Shown here in pieces: positions 2,295 to 14,143 of a stretch of 15,067 bases of DNA; position 1 is the stretch's first letter; the number at the start of each line of letters is the position of its first letter. The notes under the pieces are model-generated. The model was given only the letters and a program-made list of their open reading frames with translations. It did not search any database and had not been told where the DNA came from. The translations under genes and the position numbers were made by a program. Source of the stretch: a virus (Duplodnaviria > Heunggongvirae > Uroviricota > Caudoviricetes); IMG/VR virus record IMGVR_UViG_2703718826_000001. One strand, given 5' to 3'.

Positions 2295-2369
2295 GTCCTC
2301 TTAGTTAAATGGATATAACGAGCCCCTCCTAAGGGCTAATTGCAGGTTCGATTCCTGCAGGGGACACTT
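2295..2369 (+). tRNA. argW: tRNA-Arg (anticodon CCU)
   Basis: Cloverleaf readable by eye: acceptor GTCCTCT pairs with AGGGGAC, anticodon loop CTCCTAA, T-arm GGTTCGATTCC; matches E. coli argW from memory except the last two encoded nt are TT instead of CA (CCA end). Confidence 0.85.
2347..2367 (+). repeat. attL core: 21-bp direct repeat (3' end of argW)
   Basis: TTCGATTCCTGCAGGGGACAC is identical at 2347-2367 and 13946-13966; the first copy is the 3' end of the tRNA gene. Confidence 0.8.
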
Positions 2370-2480
2370 TAAAGACCTTTCTCTACATTTCACTTCATTA
2401 CATAACCACTTAAAAAACAGTAAGTTATCACCGAATCGGCCTGATTTTCATTTCAGTTAATTTCATGACATTACAACCTC

Positions 2481-2530
2481 GTGATGGTATAAGTGATGGT
2501 ATTCCCCAGTTCGATATGCAGATACCATCA
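2481..2530. promoter_or_regulatory. putative integrase arm-type binding sites (TGATGGTAT repeats)
   Basis: GTGATGGTAT at 2481-2490 and 2493-2502 (12-bp spacing) plus an inverted copy ATACCATCA at 2522-2530; the same tandem pair recurs inside the other island end at 13873-13893. Confidence 0.45.
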
Positions 2531-2540
2531 ATTTACCAAA

Positions 2541-3827
2541 ATGAGTACAGATATGGCCATTAATGTGCTTTCCCCCAAACAGATAGAAAACGCCAAGCCG
2601 AAGACCAATGATTACAAACTTACCGATGGAGGGAGTTTGTATCTACTGGTACGAAAGACTGGTGGAAAATACTGGCGTATGAATTATCGTTTTGATGGAA
2701 AACAAGTGACATTGGCATTAGGGGTCTACCCAGATGTCTCACTTGCAACAGCGCGGAAACGGCGTGATGAAGCCAGGCAACTACTAGCCGATGGTCGTGA
2801 TCCTCGCGAAGCAAAGAAACCCAAAAAGGAAGACCCAATTTCCCCCACGTTCGAGAGTGTTGCCAGAGAGTGGCATAGTGGAACGATGGGGCATCCTGAG
2901 TGGAAAGAGATCACCCGTAAAAAAATTCTCCGAGAAATGGAAAACCACCTCTTTCCTGCCATCGGTTCAAAGCCTATCGATACGCTCAAAACCCGTGACT
3001 TGATGCCGATGCTGGTTGAGATGACTGAGAAAGGAATTGGTGCCACAACGAGCCGGGTAAAAACCACTATGACGAGCATCTTCCGTTATGCAGTGCAACG
3101 TGGAATTGTCGATTACAACCCTGCCCACGATCTAAAAGGTGCAATTACGGCCCCCAAAGTACGACATCGCCCCGCACTACCTCTCGAACGTTTACCTGAA
3201 CTGTTAGCGAAAACGAGAAGTTACACGGGAAGACCATTGACTCGCCTAGCAGTTCTCTTTTCCCTGCACACTTTTGTGCGATCCAGCGAACTACGACATG
3301 CCAGATGGGAGGAGATCGACATTGAAAATGGGCTATGGACGATACCAGGACAACGTGAAGAGATCGCAGGGGTTAAATTCTCAGATCGGGGTGCAAAGAT
3401 GGGGGCTGCTCATTATGTCCCGCTATCTAGTCAGGCTATCGGGGTACTGGAGGATATAAGGAAAATCAGTGGTGAATATCTGCTGGTTTTCCCCGGTGAC
3501 AGCAACCCATATAAACCGATGAGCGAAAACACAGTTAATAAAGCACTGCGAACGATGGGTTACGACACTCAAACTGATGTATGCTTGCATGGGTTCAGGG
3601 CGATGGCCTGCTCTGCACTGACCGAATCAGGACTCTGGTCACGCGATGCAGTTGAACGGCAGATGAGTCACCAAGAAAGAAACGAAGTGCGGGCAGCATA
3701 TGTGCATCTTGCGCAGCACATGCAGGAACGCCGCAGAATGATGCAATGGTGGTCTAATTATCTGGAACTAAATAAGGACGAATTTCATGCTCCTTATGAC
3801 TTATCAGGTATTAACATTATCAATTAA
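2541..3827 (+). CDS. P4-type tyrosine integrase (start uncertain: 2493 GTG, 2541 ATG or 2553 ATG)
   Basis: N-terminal AKPK...Y.L.DGGSLYL...KYWRMNYRFDGKQ motif typical of P4-family integrases; C-terminal catalytic-region residues (R in VRSSELRHARWEEID, HGFRAM, AAYVH); located directly 3' of the tRNA; first 48 nt of the ORF overlap the arm-site repeats, so an internal ATG is preferred. Confidence 0.85.
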   Translation: MSTDMAINVLSPKQIENAKPKTNDYKLTDGGSLYLLVRKTGGKYWRMNYRFDGKQVTLALGVYPDVSLATARKRRDEARQLLADGRDPREAKKPKKEDPISPTFESVAREWHSGTMGHPEWKEITRKKILREMENHLFPAIGSKPIDTLKTRDLMPMLVEMTEKGIGATTSRVKTTMTSIFRYAVQRGIVDYNPAHDLKGAITAPKVRHRPALPLERLPELLAKTRSYTGRPLTRLAVLFSLHTFVRSSELRHARWEEIDIENGLWTIPGQREEIAGVKFSDRGAKMGAAHYVPLSSQAIGVLEDIRKISGEYLLVFPGDSNPYKPMSENTVNKALRTMGYDTQTDVCLHGFRAMACSALTESGLWSRDAVERQMSHQERNEVRAAYVHLAQHMQERRRMMQWWSNYLELNKDEFHAPYDLSGINIIN

Positions 3828-3857: not shown

Positions 3858-4739
3858 ATGCAGCATTCAACAGAGAATGAAACTATATTCTTAGGAAATC
3901 TATGGATTGACAAAAAAATACCACCATTAGAATATTGTTCATTTGAACGCGCTTCAAGACTATTAGAATGCGAGATTGATGATTTATTACACCTATACGA
4001 AATAGGCGCTTTTAATATCGCATTCAAGGCGGATGGACTTGCAGTTAGATTTAATGTTAATTTCCTCAATAAAAATCAGAAAATGGAAATTGACTTAATT
4101 CATCCCGTATTAACTAATCAATCACTAGAGATGGAGTTTTCAACAATATGGTATGACCTTAAAGATGATTCCTTTGAACATTTTGAAAATGGGCTTCAAA
4201 TTATAGGATTTGCCTGTGGTATTTGGTACGCCGATGATATGATAAGTGACATAAAAAATGGATTAGCTATAGATCCAGATTATGAATTCAGGCTTAAACC
4301 GGTAAAAATACGAGATAATGTTTTGATGGCAACGGCCTCATATGAAGGAAATAAGGTCATTGATATTCCATTTGAAGATCTTCTTATCATGCGAAGAGAT
4401 TTAGAGTTAATATGGAAATCAGTAAAAACTGGAATTCCTATGCCAAGTTTACTTACGAAAAGAATTTCATCTGAACCTAAAATCCCCAAGCGATTAAATA
4501 ACACTGCTGAGCATCATGCAAAAAATAGGGAGGGGTTATTAAATGCAGCCATATATATTTTAGCAAAATACCCAAGCGAATGTCGTGGTGAAAGAAAAGA
4601 GATAAGTCCTGAAAAGTGGACTAACGCCATAATTAAACATTTAGGAGAGCTACCTCCAATATTTATCACTAATGAACAAGAAATCTTAAGAAAATTACGA
4701 TTAGCGGTTAATCATGCGGGGTTAAAACAAAAGGGGTAG
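3858..4739 (+). CDS. hypothetical protein (AT-rich orphan cargo gene)
   Basis: 293-aa ORF; markedly AT-rich against GC-rich neighbours; no domain recognised. Confidence 0.6.
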   Translation: MQHSTENETIFLGNLWIDKKIPPLEYCSFERASRLLECEIDDLLHLYEIGAFNIAFKADGLAVRFNVNFLNKNQKMEIDLIHPVLTNQSLEMEFSTIWYDLKDDSFEHFENGLQIIGFACGIWYADDMISDIKNGLAIDPDYEFRLKPVKIRDNVLMATASYEGNKVIDIPFEDLLIMRRDLELIWKSVKTGIPMPSLLTKRISSEPKIPKRLNNTAEHHAKNREGLLNAAIYILAKYPSECRGERKEISPEKWTNAIIKHLGELPPIFITNEQEILRKLRLAVNHAGLKQKG

Positions 4740-4805: not shown

Positions 4806-4833
4806 CTGCCGTGTTCATTACATAACACGGCAG
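4806..4833 (+). promoter_or_regulatory. inverted repeat (10-bp arms, 8-nt spacer) just upstream of alpA
   Basis: CTGCCGTGTT 4806-4815 and AACACGGCAG 4824-4833; right arm ends 8 nt before the alpA ATG and overlaps the likely ribosome-binding region. Confidence 0.35.
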
Positions 4834-4841
4834 GTAATTTC

Positions 4842-5057
4842 ATGACATTAAAAACTTATCCTATCACTGGACATGCCCGCCCACGAGCTACTGCTGACTT
4901 TTTGCAAATAAGTACGGTTACTCTCTGGCGCTGGGAAAAGAACAATCCTGAATTTCCCAAATCTATACGCATTTCAAAACGGGTATCTGTTTACGATGCA
5001 CAAGAAATTAGGCAGTGGGTTAAAGCTCAATCAGCAGGATTGGAGGAAGTAGTGTAA
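4842..5057 (+). CDS. alpA: AlpA-family phage regulatory protein (excision regulator, HTH)
   Basis: 71-aa ORF; FLQISTVTLWRWEKNNPEFPKSIRISKRVSVYDAQEIRQWV fits the AlpA/Xis-like pattern (T-I/L-Y/W ... FP.P ... R.V.W ... EI..W). Confidence 0.7.
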   Translation: MTLKTYPITGHARPRATADFLQISTVTLWRWEKNNPEFPKSIRISKRVSVYDAQEIRQWVKAQSAGLEEVV

Positions 5058-6262: not shown

Positions 6263-6642
6263 ACCAGCCGCAGGTTTCCATTTTCCCGGCAGAAATGACC
6301 ACCGCGCTTTACCGGCGGGCTATTGCTTCAGCATGGCGGCAGAAAATGCTGAACGAAACTGGCAGTGATCAGTATGGTCCGCACAGCCTGACGGTGGAGC
6401 GTATTGAAATGGCCATTGCGCTGCATATCGAGTGCGTACTGATTAACGAGTACGGCGAAGTGCAGGGCGCCGCTGCCGCGCTGGCACTGCTGACTGACAT
6501 GCTGGAGCCGTCACTGCTGACCGCGCCGCCGGTACTGACCGCGCGCGGCTGTGAAGTGATGGCGGAGATGTACCGCACGCTTCCGGCGGCCTTTGATGAC
6601 TTCTGCAGTACCGGTGTGACGTTGTATGAGGGGGAAGTATGA
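6259..6642 (+). CDS. hypothetical protein
   Basis: 127-aa ORF coupled at both ends by ATGA overlaps (6259-6262 and 6639-6642). Confidence 0.6.
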   Translation: MNQPQVSIFPAEMTTALYRRAIASAWRQKMLNETGSDQYGPHSLTVERIEMAIALHIECVLINEYGEVQGAAAALALLTDMLEPSLLTAPPVLTARGCEVMAEMYRTLPAAFDDFCSTGVTLYEGEV

Positions 6643-9311
6643 CAATACAGACGGTTACGCAGATTTCAGCCGCCGCACGGGGGAAATGGCCCGTTATTCT
6701 GCAGATGCTGCGTATTGATGTACCTGAAAACGGCAGGCACGGTCCCTGCCCGAAATGTGGGGGCAAGGATCGTTTTCGCCTTGATGACCTTGACGGGCGC
6801 GGGACGTGGATCTGCAGCCAGTGTGGCAATGGTGACGGTCTGGATCTGGTTAAGCTCGTAACCGGTTACAGCGTCAGAAAGGCTGCGCAGGAGGTGGCGC
6901 AGGTGCTTAATGTGCCGGATGTGCAGGAACTGCCTGTTAAGCCTGCCAGACAAAAAGCCCCTAAACGCGACATGGGTCTTACCGTGGCGGCGCTGATGAA
7001 AGAGAGCCACACGGGAGAAAGCGCCTATCTGACAGGAAAAGGGTTCGCCGGATACCCGGCCTCTCTGACCGGAAGCGTGCAGCATATCAGCGGTAAGGAT
7101 TTTCCTGCCGGTTCCCTGCTGTTACCACTCACGACCAACACCGGAGCCGTGACCGGTGCACAGCTTATCGCCCCGACGGGTGAAAAAAGCATACTGCCCG
7201 GCAGCACGATGAAAGGCGCGTTTGTGTCGCTCAGCCCGTTACCGTCTGAACCACCGGTACAGGTGGTGATTACCGAAGGTTACGCTACGGCGCTGACGGT
7301 AAGCCAGCTCACTGCCGGATGCGTAGTGGCTGCCATATCTGCGGGCAACCTGCCCAATGTGGCGCAGTCGCTGCGGGCACGCTGGCCTGAGGTAAAAATT
7401 ATCATCGCCGGTGATAACGATTTTCAGGACGGGGGTGAGAATCCCGGCAGAGCCTTTGCTGAACGGGCGGCAAAAGCTGTTGGCGGCTGGATGACGCTGC
7501 CACCAGGAGAGATTAAGGCTGACTGGAATGACTTTCATCGGGAGCACGGTATTACCCGTGCCCGTGAAGCCTTTCGCAACGGTCTGGTACTGTGCGGGGA
7601 AGGCCGCACGCAACTGCCGCACGGGTTCCGTCTTACCCAGGAATATCTCTGGTATGAAAAGCAGGTACAGCGCAACGGTGAGACGGAGATCCAGAACGTC
7701 AAAATATGCAGCCCGCTGCGCGTGACGGCAATCACCTGCGATGCCGATGGCGGTAACTTCGGACGACTGCTGGAATGGGAAGATACGTGGGGTGAGTGTC
7801 GCCGCTGGGCGATGCCGATGGAAATGCTGAGCGGCAGTGGTGAGGAACTGCGCCGGGTACTGCTGGTTAACGGGCTGTCTTATATCAGCACCACCGGTGA
7901 GGCACGCGCACGCCTGATGGAATATATCTCACTGTGTAAACCGGAACGCCGCGTGACCTGCGTCAGTCGTACTGGCTGGCATGGTCAGGTTTACGTCCTG
8001 CAGGATGAGGTCAGCGGTGAAGGTGCAGAGGGTGTCATTCTCCAGACCACTTCCGTGCAGGGGCGTGATTTCCGCGTGTCGGGCACAACAGAGGAATGGC
8101 GGGAGCATGTATCCCGCTACTGTACCGGCAACTCCCGCGTGGCATTTGCTGTCAGCCTGGCCTTTGCTGCACCACTGTTACGGCTGGTTGGTATGGACGG
8201 CGGCGGCTACCACCTCAAAGGGGAATCGACAGACGGTAAGACCACCACCATGAAAGCGGCAACCTCCGTCTGCGGCGGGCCTGACTACTGGCAGACATGG
8301 CGGGCCACCGGCAACGCGCTGGAGGGATGCGCCAGCCGCCGCAACGATGCTGCCATGATGCTTGATGAGATCCGGGAAGTTGACGGACGCGAGGCAGGCA
8401 ATATCGCCTACATGCTGGCAAACGGTCAGGGCAAGGGCCGTGCCGGTACGGACGGTGAGCTGCGTACCCGTAAGCAGTGGCGCCTGTTGTTCTTTTCAAC
8501 TGGCGAGTTGTCTCTGACCGAACATGCGGCAAAGGCCGGTGAGCGTACTTTTGCCGGGATGGAAGTCAGGATGATCCAGATCCCCAGCGATTCCGGGAAG
8601 TTTGGCGTTTTTGAGGAGCTGCACGGCTTCGACAGCGGCAAGGCTCTGGCAGAGCATCTTGAATGGGCCACGTCCTGCTACTACGGTTCGCCGTTCCGGG
8701 AGTGGCTGAAAGCACTGACCGCTGATCTTAACGGACTAACGGCACAGGCAAAATCGCTGATGAAGGAATATGCTGCCGCCCTGACTCCTAAAGATGCAGG
8801 CAATCAGGTGGGCCGGGCTGTGAACCGCTTTGCACTGGTGGCGATGGCAGGTGAACTGGCAACCCGTCTGGGTATCACCGGCTGGCCTGAGGGTGAAGCA
8901 CTGCGGGCAACCCGCGTCTGCCTGAACGCATGGCTGAAAGATCGCGGGCACACCGCCAATCAGGAAGATATCGCCGCACTGGAGCAGGTTCGCAGTTTCT
9001 TTACCGCGAATCAGTACAGCCGCTTTGCAGACTGGTATGACGAGCGCAACCGCCCCGGCAATATGGTGGGCTGGCGCAGGGTGGAGAAAGGCAGTACCGC
9101 GCAGGGCACGGAAGCTGTCACTACGTTCTATGTCATGCCGTCCGGCTGGAAAGAAATCTGCAGGGGATTTGACCCGCGCAAGGTGGCGCGTCTGTGCGTA
9201 GATCGTGGATACCTGCTGCCCTCCACTGATGGCAAACTCCAGACAACCATTCGCCCGCCAGAGATGAATCCCCGCAGGCTCTATGTCTTCAACAGCGAGG
9301 TGCCGGGTTAA
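6639..9311 (+). CDS. P4 alpha-like primase-helicase (zinc-ribbon, Toprim, DUF927/D5-like NTPase)
   Basis: 890 aa; N-terminal CPKCGG...CSQCG zinc ribbon; Toprim-like ITEGYATA and AGDND; Walker A KGESTDGKTT near 8221-8247; GC-rich. Confidence 0.9.
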   Translation: MTIQTVTQISAAARGKWPVILQMLRIDVPENGRHGPCPKCGGKDRFRLDDLDGRGTWICSQCGNGDGLDLVKLVTGYSVRKAAQEVAQVLNVPDVQELPVKPARQKAPKRDMGLTVAALMKESHTGESAYLTGKGFAGYPASLTGSVQHISGKDFPAGSLLLPLTTNTGAVTGAQLIAPTGEKSILPGSTMKGAFVSLSPLPSEPPVQVVITEGYATALTVSQLTAGCVVAAISAGNLPNVAQSLRARWPEVKIIIAGDNDFQDGGENPGRAFAERAAKAVGGWMTLPPGEIKADWNDFHREHGITRAREAFRNGLVLCGEGRTQLPHGFRLTQEYLWYEKQVQRNGETEIQNVKICSPLRVTAITCDADGGNFGRLLEWEDTWGECRRWAMPMEMLSGSGEELRRVLLVNGLSYISTTGEARARLMEYISLCKPERRVTCVSRTGWHGQVYVLQDEVSGEGAEGVILQTTSVQGRDFRVSGTTEEWREHVSRYCTGNSRVAFAVSLAFAAPLLRLVGMDGGGYHLKGESTDGKTTTMKAATSVCGGPDYWQTWRATGNALEGCASRRNDAAMMLDEIREVDGREAGNIAYMLANGQGKGRAGTDGELRTRKQWRLLFFSTGELSLTEHAAKAGERTFAGMEVRMIQIPSDSGKFGVFEELHGFDSGKALAEHLEWATSCYYGSPFREWLKALTADLNGLTAQAKSLMKEYAAALTPKDAGNQVGRAVNRFALVAMAGELATRLGITGWPEGEALRATRVCLNAWLKDRGHTANQEDIAALEQVRSFFTANQYSRFADWYDERNRPGNMVGWRRVEKGSTAQGTEAVTTFYVMPSGWKEICRGFDPRKVARLCVDRGYLLPSTDGKLQTTIRPPEMNPRRLYVFNSEVPG

Positions 9312-10455: not shown

Positions 10456-11003
10456 CGGCCCGAGGCACACCTGACCAGGCACTTACCAGTTTTCGGAATG
10501 CCCGTATTCTGTGGGCCGGACATAGTGAGAGCCGAAAAGCCGTTGAACAACAGATAACATCTCTCCTCGCTGCCACAGAAAAACCAGCAGATTATGCCCG
10601 ACAGCTCGAATTACTGCGGGAACGTCTGGATGTGCTGAAATGGCAAATTAACTGTGCTGCTCGGGAATGCATTTACTCGCAGCATTTATTGATGGAGGCC
10701 TGCACAGAAGCTGCTCTCAGCAATTTTATGCAGGCGAATGGGGCAGCCCTGACATCTGCACTGGCTCCGTTCCTGAAGGGGCGCGGAGGGGTTGACGTTG
10801 CGTCCCGTATATTACGCAGTGCTCTGGTTCGCCAGCTGGCAATAACACCGCCTGAAATTGCCGGGGATTATCGTGAGATCCTGGATGAATCCGGTTTGAT
10901 GCCAGACCCCGGGATGATTCGTGATTGCCAGGGCTCTTACACCCCGGCACAACATCTGCGTTTTCAGCAACGCCTGAATGACATTAACGATATACAGGAG
11001 TGA
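10452..11003 (+). CDS. psu: Psu-like polarity suppression / capsid decoration protein
   Basis: 183 aa; motifs KWQIN, FMQANGAALTSALAP and YTPAQ match my recollection of P4 Psu; AAGGAG upstream; start overlaps the previous stop (ATGA). Confidence 0.65.
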   Translation: MTARGTPDQALTSFRNARILWAGHSESRKAVEQQITSLLAATEKPADYARQLELLRERLDVLKWQINCAARECIYSQHLLMEACTEAALSNFMQANGAALTSALAPFLKGRGGVDVASRILRSALVRQLAITPPEIAGDYREILDESGLMPDPGMIRDCQGSYTPAQHLRFQQRLNDINDIQE

Positions 11004-11008
11004 TATTA

Positions 11009-11281
11009 ATGGCACTTAAATGTCCGGAATGCGGTACAGTTGCACACGCCAGAACAGCAGCCTATGAAGCTCCGTCAGTTAAACGCTCGTGGTATCAGTG
11101 CCAGAATCTGGAATGTTCCTGCACATTTACGGCACTGGAGAGTGTGGATAAGATAATCATGAAACCCCGGCGCAATGAACAGGAACCAGACAAATCACAA
11201 ACCCCGGTAAAACAACAGCAAACGCTCAATCGCTATGGCTCCGCGTCAAAACTGTCAAGCCGTCAGCAGATTCCTGTCTAA
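11009..11281 (+). CDS. Ogr/Delta-family zinc-finger late transcription activator
   Basis: CPECG...AHARTAAY...YQCQNLECSCTF...ESV closely resembles P2 Ogr (CPLC...AHARTSRY...YHQCQNVNCSATF...ESV); AGGAG 8 nt upstream of the ATG at 11009. Confidence 0.85.
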   Translation: MALKCPECGTVAHARTAAYEAPSVKRSWYQCQNLECSCTFTALESVDKIIMKPRRNEQEPDKSQTPVKQQQTLNRYGSASKLSSRQQIPV

Positions 11282-11327: not shown

Positions 11328-11766
11328 AACACCTTTTCCCTGGCTGGCCTGAGAGCGCATGAGTGCATGTCTATAGCGCATGAAAACGCATGAACCTTAT
11401 GCACCATTTTTGACGAGAAAGCCCTTGTGTGGTGGCTTCTGAGACGATTTATGAGGTGCATGAAAACCAGTCTGTTAAGCGAAGCGGGCAGGCGTGCGGG
11501 GCTGTTCGCATCAACATAAAAATAACGGGCTGATATAGTTATAAAATCAAATGAACTCTTTTAGTACGACATGGGTATGTGCGCCAGTAGCAACGTCAGC
11601 CCCCAAGCTTTCTATTGTTCTTTTCTGTTGTACCATCAATACGTACCGATTAGCTCCTAAGCATCAATATCAGTTTGAACGTATTGCTTTGAACTAATTT
11701 TTAGATGATTTTTTTCATTAAAAAATTATAATGTTGTAGATAAAAAGAGAATCTTATAGAGGCGTT

Positions 11767-12615
11767 ATGTCAAATAAAGTTGATGTTTTTTTGAGCCGAG
11801 TTAGCCATGTATCACAGTTTGTATTGGTGGCATTTGCTATTTTTGGATATTTTTATACAGTAAGACCAATTTACCAAAAGGAACTTTTATCAGAAGACAT
11901 TGCAAAAAAAGAAGTTGAATTAAATAAATTAAAAACTGCAATGGAAAACTCCCAAAAATTTATAGAGAATAATAAAATCTTACGAAAAGAATTGGAGGGA
12001 AGCATTGCCAAACTTGATTTACAATACAAAGAATCAGAAGAAAAATTAAATTCAATAAATTCTGAACTAAGAAAAACTTTAAATGAACTAAATAAACAAA
12101 AGACCATTGCCAAAAGAGCGGTCAATGCAAACAACAAGAATCTTGAATCTGTTTTCTGGGAGAATTTTTCGGGGCTAGTTGGAGTAGTTTATATTTCTAA
12201 GAGCACAGATTTTGTGAACAATACACTGGGTGACGCCAAAACAGCCTATAATACTCCTAGTAATTTATATATATCTCCTTATGATGCAATTAATGAAGCA
12301 TTAAAAAATGGCAATCATAACTTTATCTCAAGTTCAGAAAATGTCCCTGAAAATATCCGCAACAAAATTCTAGCAAAGATCCGTCGCGCTATTGAAAAAA
12401 ATAAGATTTCATTAACAAAAAAACCTATCGGTTTTGATGAAAAAATTAATAGTCTGATAAAAACTATAGAGTCAACTAAGTTACGCAAAAATGAAAACGA
12501 AATAATGAAAAATAACACTGCAGAAAGAGAACTATCATCTTATATTTTCCTGATAAATGGTCAATCAAGAATCCGCGCCATGGATTTCTTAAAAGACATT
12601 CAACATTTAGACTAA
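11767..12615 (+). CDS. hypothetical membrane-anchored coiled-coil protein (cargo gene A, candidate defence component)
   Basis: 282 aa; AGAGG 4 nt upstream of ATG; one N-terminal hydrophobic helix (VSQFVLVAFAIFGYFYTV) then a Lys/Glu/Asn-rich heptad-like region; strongly AT-rich; no known domain recognised. Confidence 0.75.
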   Translation: MSNKVDVFLSRVSHVSQFVLVAFAIFGYFYTVRPIYQKELLSEDIAKKEVELNKLKTAMENSQKFIENNKILRKELEGSIAKLDLQYKESEEKLNSINSELRKTLNELNKQKTIAKRAVNANNKNLESVFWENFSGLVGVVYISKSTDFVNNTLGDAKTAYNTPSNLYISPYDAINEALKNGNHNFISSSENVPENIRNKILAKIRRAIEKNKISLTKKPIGFDEKINSLIKTIESTKLRKNENEIMKNNTAERELSSYIFLINGQSRIRAMDFLKDIQHLD

Positions 12616-12631
12616 TATTGGATATCTTATA

Positions 12632-13336
12632 ATGAATACTAATACTAAATTTGATTTATGGTTGATTAGAGTAAGTTACATTGCCCAAGTTGGATTGTTT
12701 TTTTTGACAACCTTTACAATATTTTACACAGTAATTCCGATATACCAAAATGCAAATCTGCAGGAATCAATAGCAAAAAAAGAAATCGAATATAAACAAT
12801 TACAAGACAAAGAAAAAACTCTATATTTAAAGTTAAGAAAGGAATATTCAAGAAAATATGTTGTTGATGCAATCTCCCAATGTTCTCCAACAGAAATACT
12901 TATGCGTCAACCATCTGAAGATGACAGTAAAAAATCACATGATGTAAGAATGAAGGAATTAAAAACATTTTTAAACAAAGATATAACCAGTTGCTTTGAA
13001 AAAACTTTTTATAGCAACCCTTACATTAAGGAATTAAGAGACACTGATCAACAAAATATTCTTGTTAAAATTAAAAATTTATCCCCCTCTATAACTAAAC
13101 TACATGAAAAATATAAAGCAGAATTTGATGACGATAGCAAGTTATTGAATACTGGAAAAGAAAAATCGACAAGATTAAAAGAGGTGGAAGATTATTTAAT
13201 AGGAATAGGAGGTTACACAGAAAACAGCAAAAAGGATTTTGAAAACTCATACATAGAATCTGGAGCATATGACTTGGTTGTAAGGTATGGTTTTGAAGTC
13301 AACGATCTATTTTCCAAAACCATCAGAGACAATTAA
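12632..13336 (+). CDS. hypothetical membrane-anchored protein, N-terminal paralogue of gene A (cargo gene B)
   Basis: 234 aa; begins 16 bp after gene A; N-terminal helix (IAQVGLFFLTTFTIFYTV) and the FYTV-PIYQ ... IAKKE motif shared with gene A; divergent C-terminus. Confidence 0.75.
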   Translation: MNTNTKFDLWLIRVSYIAQVGLFFLTTFTIFYTVIPIYQNANLQESIAKKEIEYKQLQDKEKTLYLKLRKEYSRKYVVDAISQCSPTEILMRQPSEDDSKKSHDVRMKELKTFLNKDITSCFEKTFYSNPYIKELRDTDQQNILVKIKNLSPSITKLHEKYKAEFDDDSKLLNTGKEKSTRLKEVEDYLIGIGGYTENSKKDFENSYIESGAYDLVVRYGFEVNDLFSKTIRDN

Positions 13337-13347
13337 TTAGGTGAACA

Positions 13348-13377
13348 ACCTCCTCTATTTTAATTAATAGAGGAGGT
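13348..13377 (+). terminator. perfect 12-bp stem-loop 3' of cargo gene B (putative terminator or RNA-stabilising hairpin)
   Basis: ACCTCCTCTATT 13348-13359, loop TTAATT, AATAGAGGAGGT 13366-13377; begins 12 nt after the stop; no clean U-tract follows. Confidence 0.45.
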
Positions 13378-13872
13378 GCTTAAATTATAAAAACATTTCA
13401 GGTTTGATTTAGATAACACGCAAATAAAAAACAAACTAATGAAATATATAAATTAATTCTTAGGTATAAAATGTTACAATTAGAATATATTTAATTTTTA
13501 ACTTTAAATCATGATAAATCTAAAAGTAAGCACCCAAAAAACCTTCAAAACACAATACGTCGTGTCTCAACCCCATGGTATTTAGGGTTAAACCAAGTTA
13601 TAGCGCTGACTGGTGAGCGGTTTGAAGTCATTCTGGTATACATAAAATGAAAAAATACATTGGGAGATATACCCCTGACTTACAGAGCTGGTAACGGTTA
13701 CCAAGTCGCATTGTGTAATGCGTGGGGTGTAAAATTTTTTGGGTATTTTTTATCCAGTAGCAGGTTAGCCTGCCCCCCCTGCTCCTAACGTTCTTTCATT
13801 CCTCTTTTCATCATTTTTAGAACGATATAAACAGATGGATCTCTATGGTTTTAATGAGTCGATTTTATCGTC

Positions 13873-13893
13873 TGATGGTATCCATGATGGTAC
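13873..13893 (+). promoter_or_regulatory. putative integrase arm-type sites at the attR end
   Basis: TGATGGTAT 13873-13881 and TGATGGTAC 13885-13893, same motif and 12-bp spacing as at 2481-2502. Confidence 0.45.
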
Positions 13894-13945
13894 CTAAGAG
13901 AGAAAATAAAAAATAATACTTAAAAAACATGAAATTATAAATACT

Positions 13946-13966
13946 TTCGATTCCTGCAGGGGACAC
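13946..13966 (+). repeat. attR core: 21-bp direct repeat (partial tRNA 3' end); probably also the attL of the next island
   Basis: Identical to 2347-2367; here followed by CA (13967-13968), i.e. the canonical tRNA CCA end. Confidence 0.8.
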
Positions 13967-14143
13967 CATGCACACCTCTCCTGAAATCTACCATACCCCA
14001 CAAAAAGCCTTTATAATCAGCACATACCCTTACTTATGTTACTCAAATAGTCGCCTTAATTCTCCTCAGGGGAACGTAAATCAAGTCACATTTGGGGGCC
14101 TATTTAGGGGCACATCTTGGTCAATCTATTGCGAGGCCCCCAG

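Follow-up and report, generated by a model that had tools for sequence, protein, structure and literature searches.

Repeats at both ends of a P4-like satellite in argW as candidate arm-type sites of its integrase

Five copies of the 9-mer TGATGGTAT, lying inside the two ends of a P4-like satellite, very probably serve as arm-type sites at which the island's own tyrosine integrase, a P4-family enzyme (2553–3827), binds, as judged by comparing the 15,067-nucleotide stretch of DNA that was analysed (the window) with related sequences. Both arms carry the repeats, attL three and attR two; they bear no sequence resemblance to the attachment core TTCGATTCCTGCAGGGGACAC and stand beside an integrase with an N-terminal arm-binding domain. 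Their arrangement is that of a P4-type attP—distal pair, core, proximal 12-nt pair and an inverted copy next to int—while the site sequence is not that of P4. A first-pass annotation had recognised in the repeats the geometry of arm-type sites for a lambda/P4-type tyrosine recombinase, and this reading is supported by the combination of an integrase carrying an Arm-DNA-bind_3 domain and repeats laid out as in the P4 attP record (X51522).

The 11.6-kb satellite sits in the 3′ end of argW, which has yfdC upstream of it, and lies between two copies of a 21-bp core within which we place strand exchange. The main landmarks of the island are as follows.

2295–2367, plus strand: argW, tRNA-Arg(CCT), the integration target; called by ARAGORN and annotated as tRNA-Arg in E. 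coli genomes
2347–2367, plus strand: attL core TTCGATTCCTGCAGGGGACAC, 21 bp, the last 21 bp of argW; direct repeat family D5, identical to the attR core
2553–3827, plus strand: P4-type tyrosine integrase of 424 aa with an N-terminal arm-binding domain (Pfam PF13356, PF22022 and PF00589)
4842–5057: AlpA-family protein (AlpA/Vis-type), by Pfam domain match
6639–9311: primase with Zn-ribbon, Toprim and DUF927, by Pfam domain match
Within the island: two Psu-like proteins, by Pfam domain match
11000–11281: Ogr/Delta zinc finger
11767–12615: cargo ORF of 282 aa
12632–13336: cargo ORF of 234 aa
13946–13966, plus strand: attR core TTCGATTCCTGCAGGGGACAC, the copy of the argW 3′ end; direct repeat family D5

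The left flank of the island was matched in all 5426 complete E. coli genomes, and among the matches listed those without the island stop at 2367. On the other side, window positions 13946–14100 correspond to the end of an uninterrupted tRNA-Arg in more than 250 E. coli genomes. These empty sites confirm the boundaries of the island. The integrase of the island was found in 72 genomes at a DNA identity of at least 95%.

Integration alters the 3′ end of argW. The empty-site version, retained at attR (window 13959–13970), reads GGGGACACCA and encodes CCA; at attL (window 2360–2372) it reads GGGGACAC, followed by TTTA and without CCA. Among the Citrobacter and Enterobacter relatives (L006, L085), the attL end of argW is GGGGACAATC, with the discriminator base changed too. 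The same tRNA gene also hosts composite loci: the genome of ETEC1720 (L002, NZ_CP122859, 11714–13460) carries a KplE1-like lambdoid prophage ending in torI between argW and the P4-type integrase—two unrelated integrase systems in tandem on one argW core—and its P4-like element has shrunk to int, one ORF and IS1. The integrase is truncated in strain EC2 (L001, NZ_CP058571).

Between the Ogr/Delta gene and attR lies AT-rich cargo (window 11500–13500; G+C 27–31%), and unrelated genes occupy the equivalent position in relatives. A variable anti-phage hotspot is reported at this position near attR in P4-like satellites, and the two cargo ORFs (11767–12615 and 12632–13336) may therefore be uncharacterised defence genes; Pfam and PADLOC searches of the ORFs at 11767–13336 returned no match.

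The five repeats are distributed over the two arms as listed.

2482–2490, plus strand: candidate arm-type site P′1, exact TGATGGTAT, invariant in 9/9 aligned attL arms; P4 counterpart 3954–3965
2494–2502, plus strand: candidate arm-type site P′2, exact TGATGGTAT, with TGATGGTA invariant in 9/9; P4 counterpart 3942–3953
2522–2530, minus strand: candidate arm-type site P′3, exact TGATGGTAT in inverted orientation, with GATACCATCA invariant in 9/9; P4 counterpart 3915–3926, beside the int start
13873–13881, plus strand: candidate arm-type site P1, exact TGATGGTAT, present in L086 and L101–L103 and invariant in the attR alignment; P4 counterpart 4163–4174
13885–13893, plus strand: candidate arm-type site P2, TGATGGTAC with one mismatch, with TGATGGTA invariant in the attR alignment; P4 counterpart 4151–4162

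The first-pass annotation had described a tandem pair with 12-bp spacing at 2481–2502, an inverted third copy at 2522–2530 and a matching pair at 13873–13893. Exact copies of the 9-mer start at 2482 and 2494, the start at 2481 being valid for the 10-mer GTGATGGTAT, which occurs there and again at 2493; the inverted copy is an exact TGATGGTAT on the minus strand. For the pair at the other end, the tandem arrangement, the 12-bp period and the first copy held as described, and the match of the last copy was incomplete: TGATGGTAC at 13885 ends in C, its one mismatch to TGATGGTAT. Relative to the core, the attL copies lie 115–163 bp and the attR copies 53–73 bp inside the island, close to the ~115–180 bp and ~55–75 bp given before. 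Both tandem pairs have a period of 12 bp, which exceeds one helical turn and counts against reading them as arm sites.

Phage P4 offers the closest comparison. Like the island, it is a satellite of 11.6 kb that encodes primase, Psu and Delta; its target is leuX where that of the window element is argW, and its integrase belongs to the same family (52% identity to the island Int). The arm repeats of P4 attP were reportedly first described by Pierson and Kahn in 1987; we relied on the annotation in X51522/NC_001609 for the arm repeats and in X05947 for the int promoter. X51522 carries six features labelled ‘attP arm sequence repeat’, the sixth of them within int, where no such additional copy was seen in the window. 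Read in int orientation, P4 has a pair (GTGGGGGCACAA and AAGGGGGCATAT), 55 nt, a 20-bp core, 113 nt, a proximal pair with a 12-nt period (TTGGGGGCATAA and TTGGGGGCATCT) and, at the start of int, an inverted TTGGGGGCACAT, its annotated 12-nt unit 15 nt away from the one before. The window has a pair, 52 nt, the core, 114 nt, a pair, 19 nt, an inverted copy, 22 nt and the int ATG. Both systems thus show a distal pair, then a proximal pair plus inverted copy between core and int, with the same 12-nt period, and since the layouts agree (52 vs 55 nt; 114 vs 113 nt), repeat number, orientation, period and distances all coincide. The comparison with known P4 arm sites that had been recommended therefore came out in agreement on number, orientation and spacing. 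P4 also shares a TTCGAT block between P′2 and P′3, and the –10 box of its Pint has the same register relative to repeat 1 as the likely –10 in the window. The motifs themselves differ: TGGGGGCAY (TGGGGGCAT) in P4 and TGATGGTAY (TGATGGTAT) in the window are identical at 6/9 positions, with differences at positions 3, 4 and 7. On these counts, the window motif is a specificity variant and not the P4 site itself.

A graded series of homologues, from 98% to ~55% identity to the island Int, allowed the conservation of the repeats to be followed. The integrase-anchored loci came from Buttiauxella, Rahnella, Citrobacter, Enterobacter, Pantoea and Yersinia plus one record labelled Chryseobacterium, all at argW. 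That last record (L005, CACSKA010000009.1, Chryseobacterium sp.) has an enterobacterial-type argW context and an island Int 81% identical to ours; the context suggests assembly contamination or mislabelling. We aligned nine attL arms (alignment A2), namely the window and eight relatives with an Int 61–89% identical, drawn from Enterobacter, Citrobacter, Buttiauxella, Rahnella, Pantoea, Yersinia and one gut metagenome. The core and the blocks TGATGGTAT, TGATGGTA and GATACCATCA were invariant in 9/9, while the 3-nt spacers varied (AAG, AAA, CTT, CGT, TTA), as did the core-to-pair region and the leader, both with indels. Even in the islands of Yersinia canariae, whose Int is just 61% identical, the three TGATGGTAT sites are still exact. 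Int is all that these islands have in common with the window; their cargo consists of AbiE, patatin, CBASS-like cyclase, or LysR and hydrolase genes, and no AlpA gene was called within 10 kb of int.

At the right end, the pair keeps a fixed distance to the core in all four integrase-anchored relatives with a readable right end (L086 and L101–L103); the right ends of L003–L006, L085 and L087–L092 were left out because the 10-kb flank was too short or the contig ended. L086, with an Int 89% identical, carries TGATGGTAT twice, and the core comes after it at the same distance as in the window. L101–L103 are three E. coli genomes picked by integrase match and taken with larger flanks; they present two different right-end cargoes and arm sequences, and in each the pair precedes by 55–56 nt the GATTCC of a core that is slightly degenerate. 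A metagenome scan that required pair and core and permitted a gap of 35–65 nt returned eight junctions—chosen by motif, and hence unbiased only in spacing and flank diversity—of which 8/8 had a gap (GGTA to GATTCC) of exactly 56 nt, as in the window (13894–13945), and four had wholly unrelated sequence upstream of the pair. The same attR signature gave 0 matches when viral contigs were scanned. One human gut metagenome contig (L100, 359–660) shows pair, 56 nt, core, 116 nt, pair, inverted copy and int around a single core, and is an attP in excised, circular form or else two islands in tandem. The conservation check advised for related argW islands thus gave invariant attL copies and an attR pair at a fixed core distance. 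A further conserved element was noted in attR, between pair and core.

13921–13938: A-rich box TAAAAAACA...TTA, with invariant or near-invariant columns in alignment A3

Together with the fixed 56-nt distal spacing, this box suggests a protein-induced bend, and it is possibly the site of a bending protein, a function that is speculative. The IHF consensus WATCAANNNNTTR had no match with up to one mismatch in either arm of the window; a perfect one occurs at the position of the A-rich box only in L100.

The layout extends beyond argW. Most of 80 P4-type int loci from a genome scan have a 12-bp-spaced pair and an inverted copy ~20 nt downstream, 60–80 nt upstream of int, with motif classes that go by clade: TGWTGGTA, TGYGGGTA, GAGTATA and GAGGGTA. 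The class follows two residues in the second beta-strand of the arm-binding domain, those just ahead of L-L-V: MH, LY and MY go with TGWTGGTA, MV and LI with TGYGGGTA, and MF with GAGTATA. Eighteen of the 19 alignment columns most informative on class fall at residues 9–102, the top ones corresponding to residues 20, 30 and 44 of the island Int. Mean normalised mutual information with class was 0.22 in the N-domain and 0.12 in the rest of the protein, a covariation that fits site recognition by the N-domain, with common descent and the position of the P′ sites directly upstream of the N-domain coding sequence as confounding factors. A tentative extension, to which we give somewhat less than even odds, is that the P4 integrase family uses a readable arm-site code, TG-nn-GG-n-AY, in which positions 3–4 (and 7) would be set by a few beta-strand residues of Arm-DNA-bind_3.

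The sites also bear on the start of the integrase gene, since the 444-aa ORF opened by GTG 2493 starts within P′2 and reads through P′3. As the first-pass annotation had argued, this ORF is over-extended at its 5′ end, and the int start is ATG 2553. PGAP begins the identical protein (WP_000996991.1, 424 aa) at the equivalent ATG; the invariant Met-Ala (M1-A2) of homologues aligns there; and the Pfam domain sets in at residue 26 of the long ORF (PF13356 Arm-DNA-bind_3, residues 26–109, E=4.9e-27), followed by the central and catalytic domains. The DNA upstream of ATG 2553 carries 1-nt indels among relatives, a conservation that is site-like and not codon-like, and the ATG at 2541 is found in the window only, being missing in relatives. 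The N-terminal 90 residues of the island Int align with the solved chains PDB 3JTZ and 3JU0 (E=1.3e-26 and 3.2e-15). The structures 3JTZ/3RMP and 3JU0 are those of the arm-binding domains from the integrases of HPI and HAI7, islands with target genes other than argW. In Yersinia canariae (L090–L092), the three TGATGGTAT sites lie farther upstream, ~217 nt from the called int ATG as against ~70 nt, which implies a long leader or another true int start.

Upstream of ATG 2553, the proximal pair coincides with a candidate promoter.

2465–2493, plus strand: putative int promoter (Pint), read by eye, with –35 ATGACA at 2465–2470, a 17-nt spacer and extended –10 TGgTATAAG at 2485–2493

The likely –10, TATAAG at 2488–2493 preceded by TG at 2485–2486, lies over repeat 1, and the –35 block TTCATGACATTACA is conserved in 8/9 aligned relatives. 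In P4, the Pint –10 annotated in X05947, CATAAT, runs from the end of repeat 1 into the first base of repeat 2. A promoter and terminator scanner run on 2200–2700 gave no matches; Pint went uncalled because its –10 ends in G. P′1 overlaps the likely –10 and P′2 the likely start of transcription, so that int should be repressed when Int occupies them: Int bound to P′1 and P′2 would occlude the –10 box and start site of Pint, and we infer autorepression through sites over the gene's own promoter. Such a circuit has precedents, as KplE1 IntS, at the same argW, represses its own promoter, which its arm-type P′ sites overlap, and P4 Int, too, is stated to repress the gene that encodes it, binding directly to sites in comparable places (PMC2951348).

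Three other explanations of the repeats were weighed against the integrase reading. That a 9-mer should have recurred by chance, without function, has a probability close to nil. Short repeats in two or three copies are common, and the window holds five more one-mismatch matches elsewhere; however, its ten matches to TGATGGTAT with at most one mismatch compare with 3.4 expected and were equalled in 0/200 shuffles, and 1/1000 first-order Markov simulations of the window produced an exact 9-mer pair spaced by 10–13 bp that had an inverted copy close by, a figure that leaves out the pair at the opposite end of the island. The geometry is moreover the same as in P4, and the sites are invariant across Int proteins of 61–89% identity while their flanks diverge, which excludes chance. 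We also consider it very unlikely that the attL copies are promoter and leader elements of int (a –10-like TATAAG and a leader hairpin) and the attR pair a coincidence. The likely –10 box does lie within repeat 1, and P′2 and P′3 can form a stem of 9 bp, the minimum free energy of 2488–2560 being –12.9 kcal/mol. This fold is, however, no better than those of shuffled sequences (z=–1.25; 22/200 fold as well), and the RNA hairpin P′2/P′3 was rejected on that score. Transcription from the putative promoter would begin at ~2500 and leave most of P′2 out of the RNA, the inverted copy in other motif classes is often an imperfect complement of P′2, and a hairpin leaves both the tandem copy P′1 and the attR pair at its fixed 56-nt core distance unexplained.

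Somewhat less improbable, yet still unlikely, is that the repeats are sites for an excisionase or regulator of the island (the AlpA/Vis-type protein at 4842–5057) that controls directionality and represses int. P4 Vis is reported by Cali et al. (2004) to act on two boxes between int and core, an AlpA-family gene is present in the island, and recombination directionality factors are described as typically binding direct repeats about one helical turn apart (PMC7498355). Excisionase sites would be direct repeats on one arm with a cognate excisionase gene alongside, which the TGATGGTAT repeats are not: their presence on both arms and the inverted copy are typical of arm-type sites and unusual for an excisionase, and they stay exact in Yersinia islands that have only int in common and no AlpA called within 10 kb. 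It is on account of these features that we regard excisionase sites as unlikely. In addition, the motif class follows the Int N-domain, the equivalent repeats of P4 are annotated as arm repeats, and a different repeat family, TTTCAnnnCATTACA, fits AlpA/Vis boxes better.

This second family occurs at 2386–2411, 2454–2479 and 4831–4856 with the pattern CATTTCA..TCATTACA.AACC; within it, the 15-mer AATTTCATGACATTA, a near-palindrome around CATG, is exact at 2459 and 4836. One copy lies over the putative int –35 and another over the alpA start codon, and several relatives keep the repeat at both places. The family may represent AlpA/Vis operator boxes that link the control of int and alpA.

Two further recombination systems help to place the arm-type reading of the TGATGGTAT repeats. 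The IntS/TorI module of KplE1 (CPS-53), a lambdoid prophage where the island is a P4-like satellite, uses the same argW target with a core, CTGCAGGGGACACCAT, that overlaps the island core; its int adjoins attL and is transcribed away from it, as in the island, and its P′1 lies over the –10 of int, like the site at the putative Pint of the island (PMC2951348). TAAA, conserved in all P′ sites of IntS (PMC2951348), is absent from TGATGGTAT, and the IntS arm sites were rejected as the same system because of this difference in motif. Lambda Int, the heterobivalent integrase, likewise has five arm sites split 2 + 3 (P1, P2 and P′1–P′3), with the three-site arm beside int and sites unrelated to the core sequence (PMC2951348). 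The island differs from lambda in that its Arm-DNA-bind_3 domain has another fold than the lambda N-terminus, the period is 12 bp compared with ~10–11 bp, the distal and proximal pairs point the same way with the third proximal site inverted, and int is transcribed away from att.

Upon excision, attP would consist of the P1–P2 pair, ~52 nt, the 21-bp core, 114 nt, the P′1–P′2 pair, 19 nt, the inverted P′3 and int. We envisage that the Arm-DNA-bind_3 N-domain of Int occupies the arm sites and the C-terminal domains the core, so that the bivalent protein would bridge and wrap arms and core into an intasome for both integration and excision, probably assisted by bending proteins and the AlpA/Vis-type excisionase. 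The sequences show the sites, their geometry and conservation, their positional homology to the annotated arm repeats of P4 and their covariation with the N-domain, whereas binding by Int, a role in the intasome and autorepression of int are proposals. The biology follows the P4/KplE1 paradigm; the motif specificity is this integrase's own.

For the island itself, the arm sites supply an independent, sequence-level confirmation of its ends and move the integrase start from GTG 2493 to ATG 2553, and their layout predicts autorepression of int through sites over its own promoter. They also yield a search signature—pair, 56 nt and tRNA core at one end; pair and inverted copy upstream of int at the other—that served to locate the two ends of P4-type islands in genomic and metagenomic sequences. 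If the arm-site code holds, then together with the near-universal layout it would make arm sites, island ends and integrase autoregulation predictable for thousands of tRNA-borne islands, and arm specificity could be reprogrammed.
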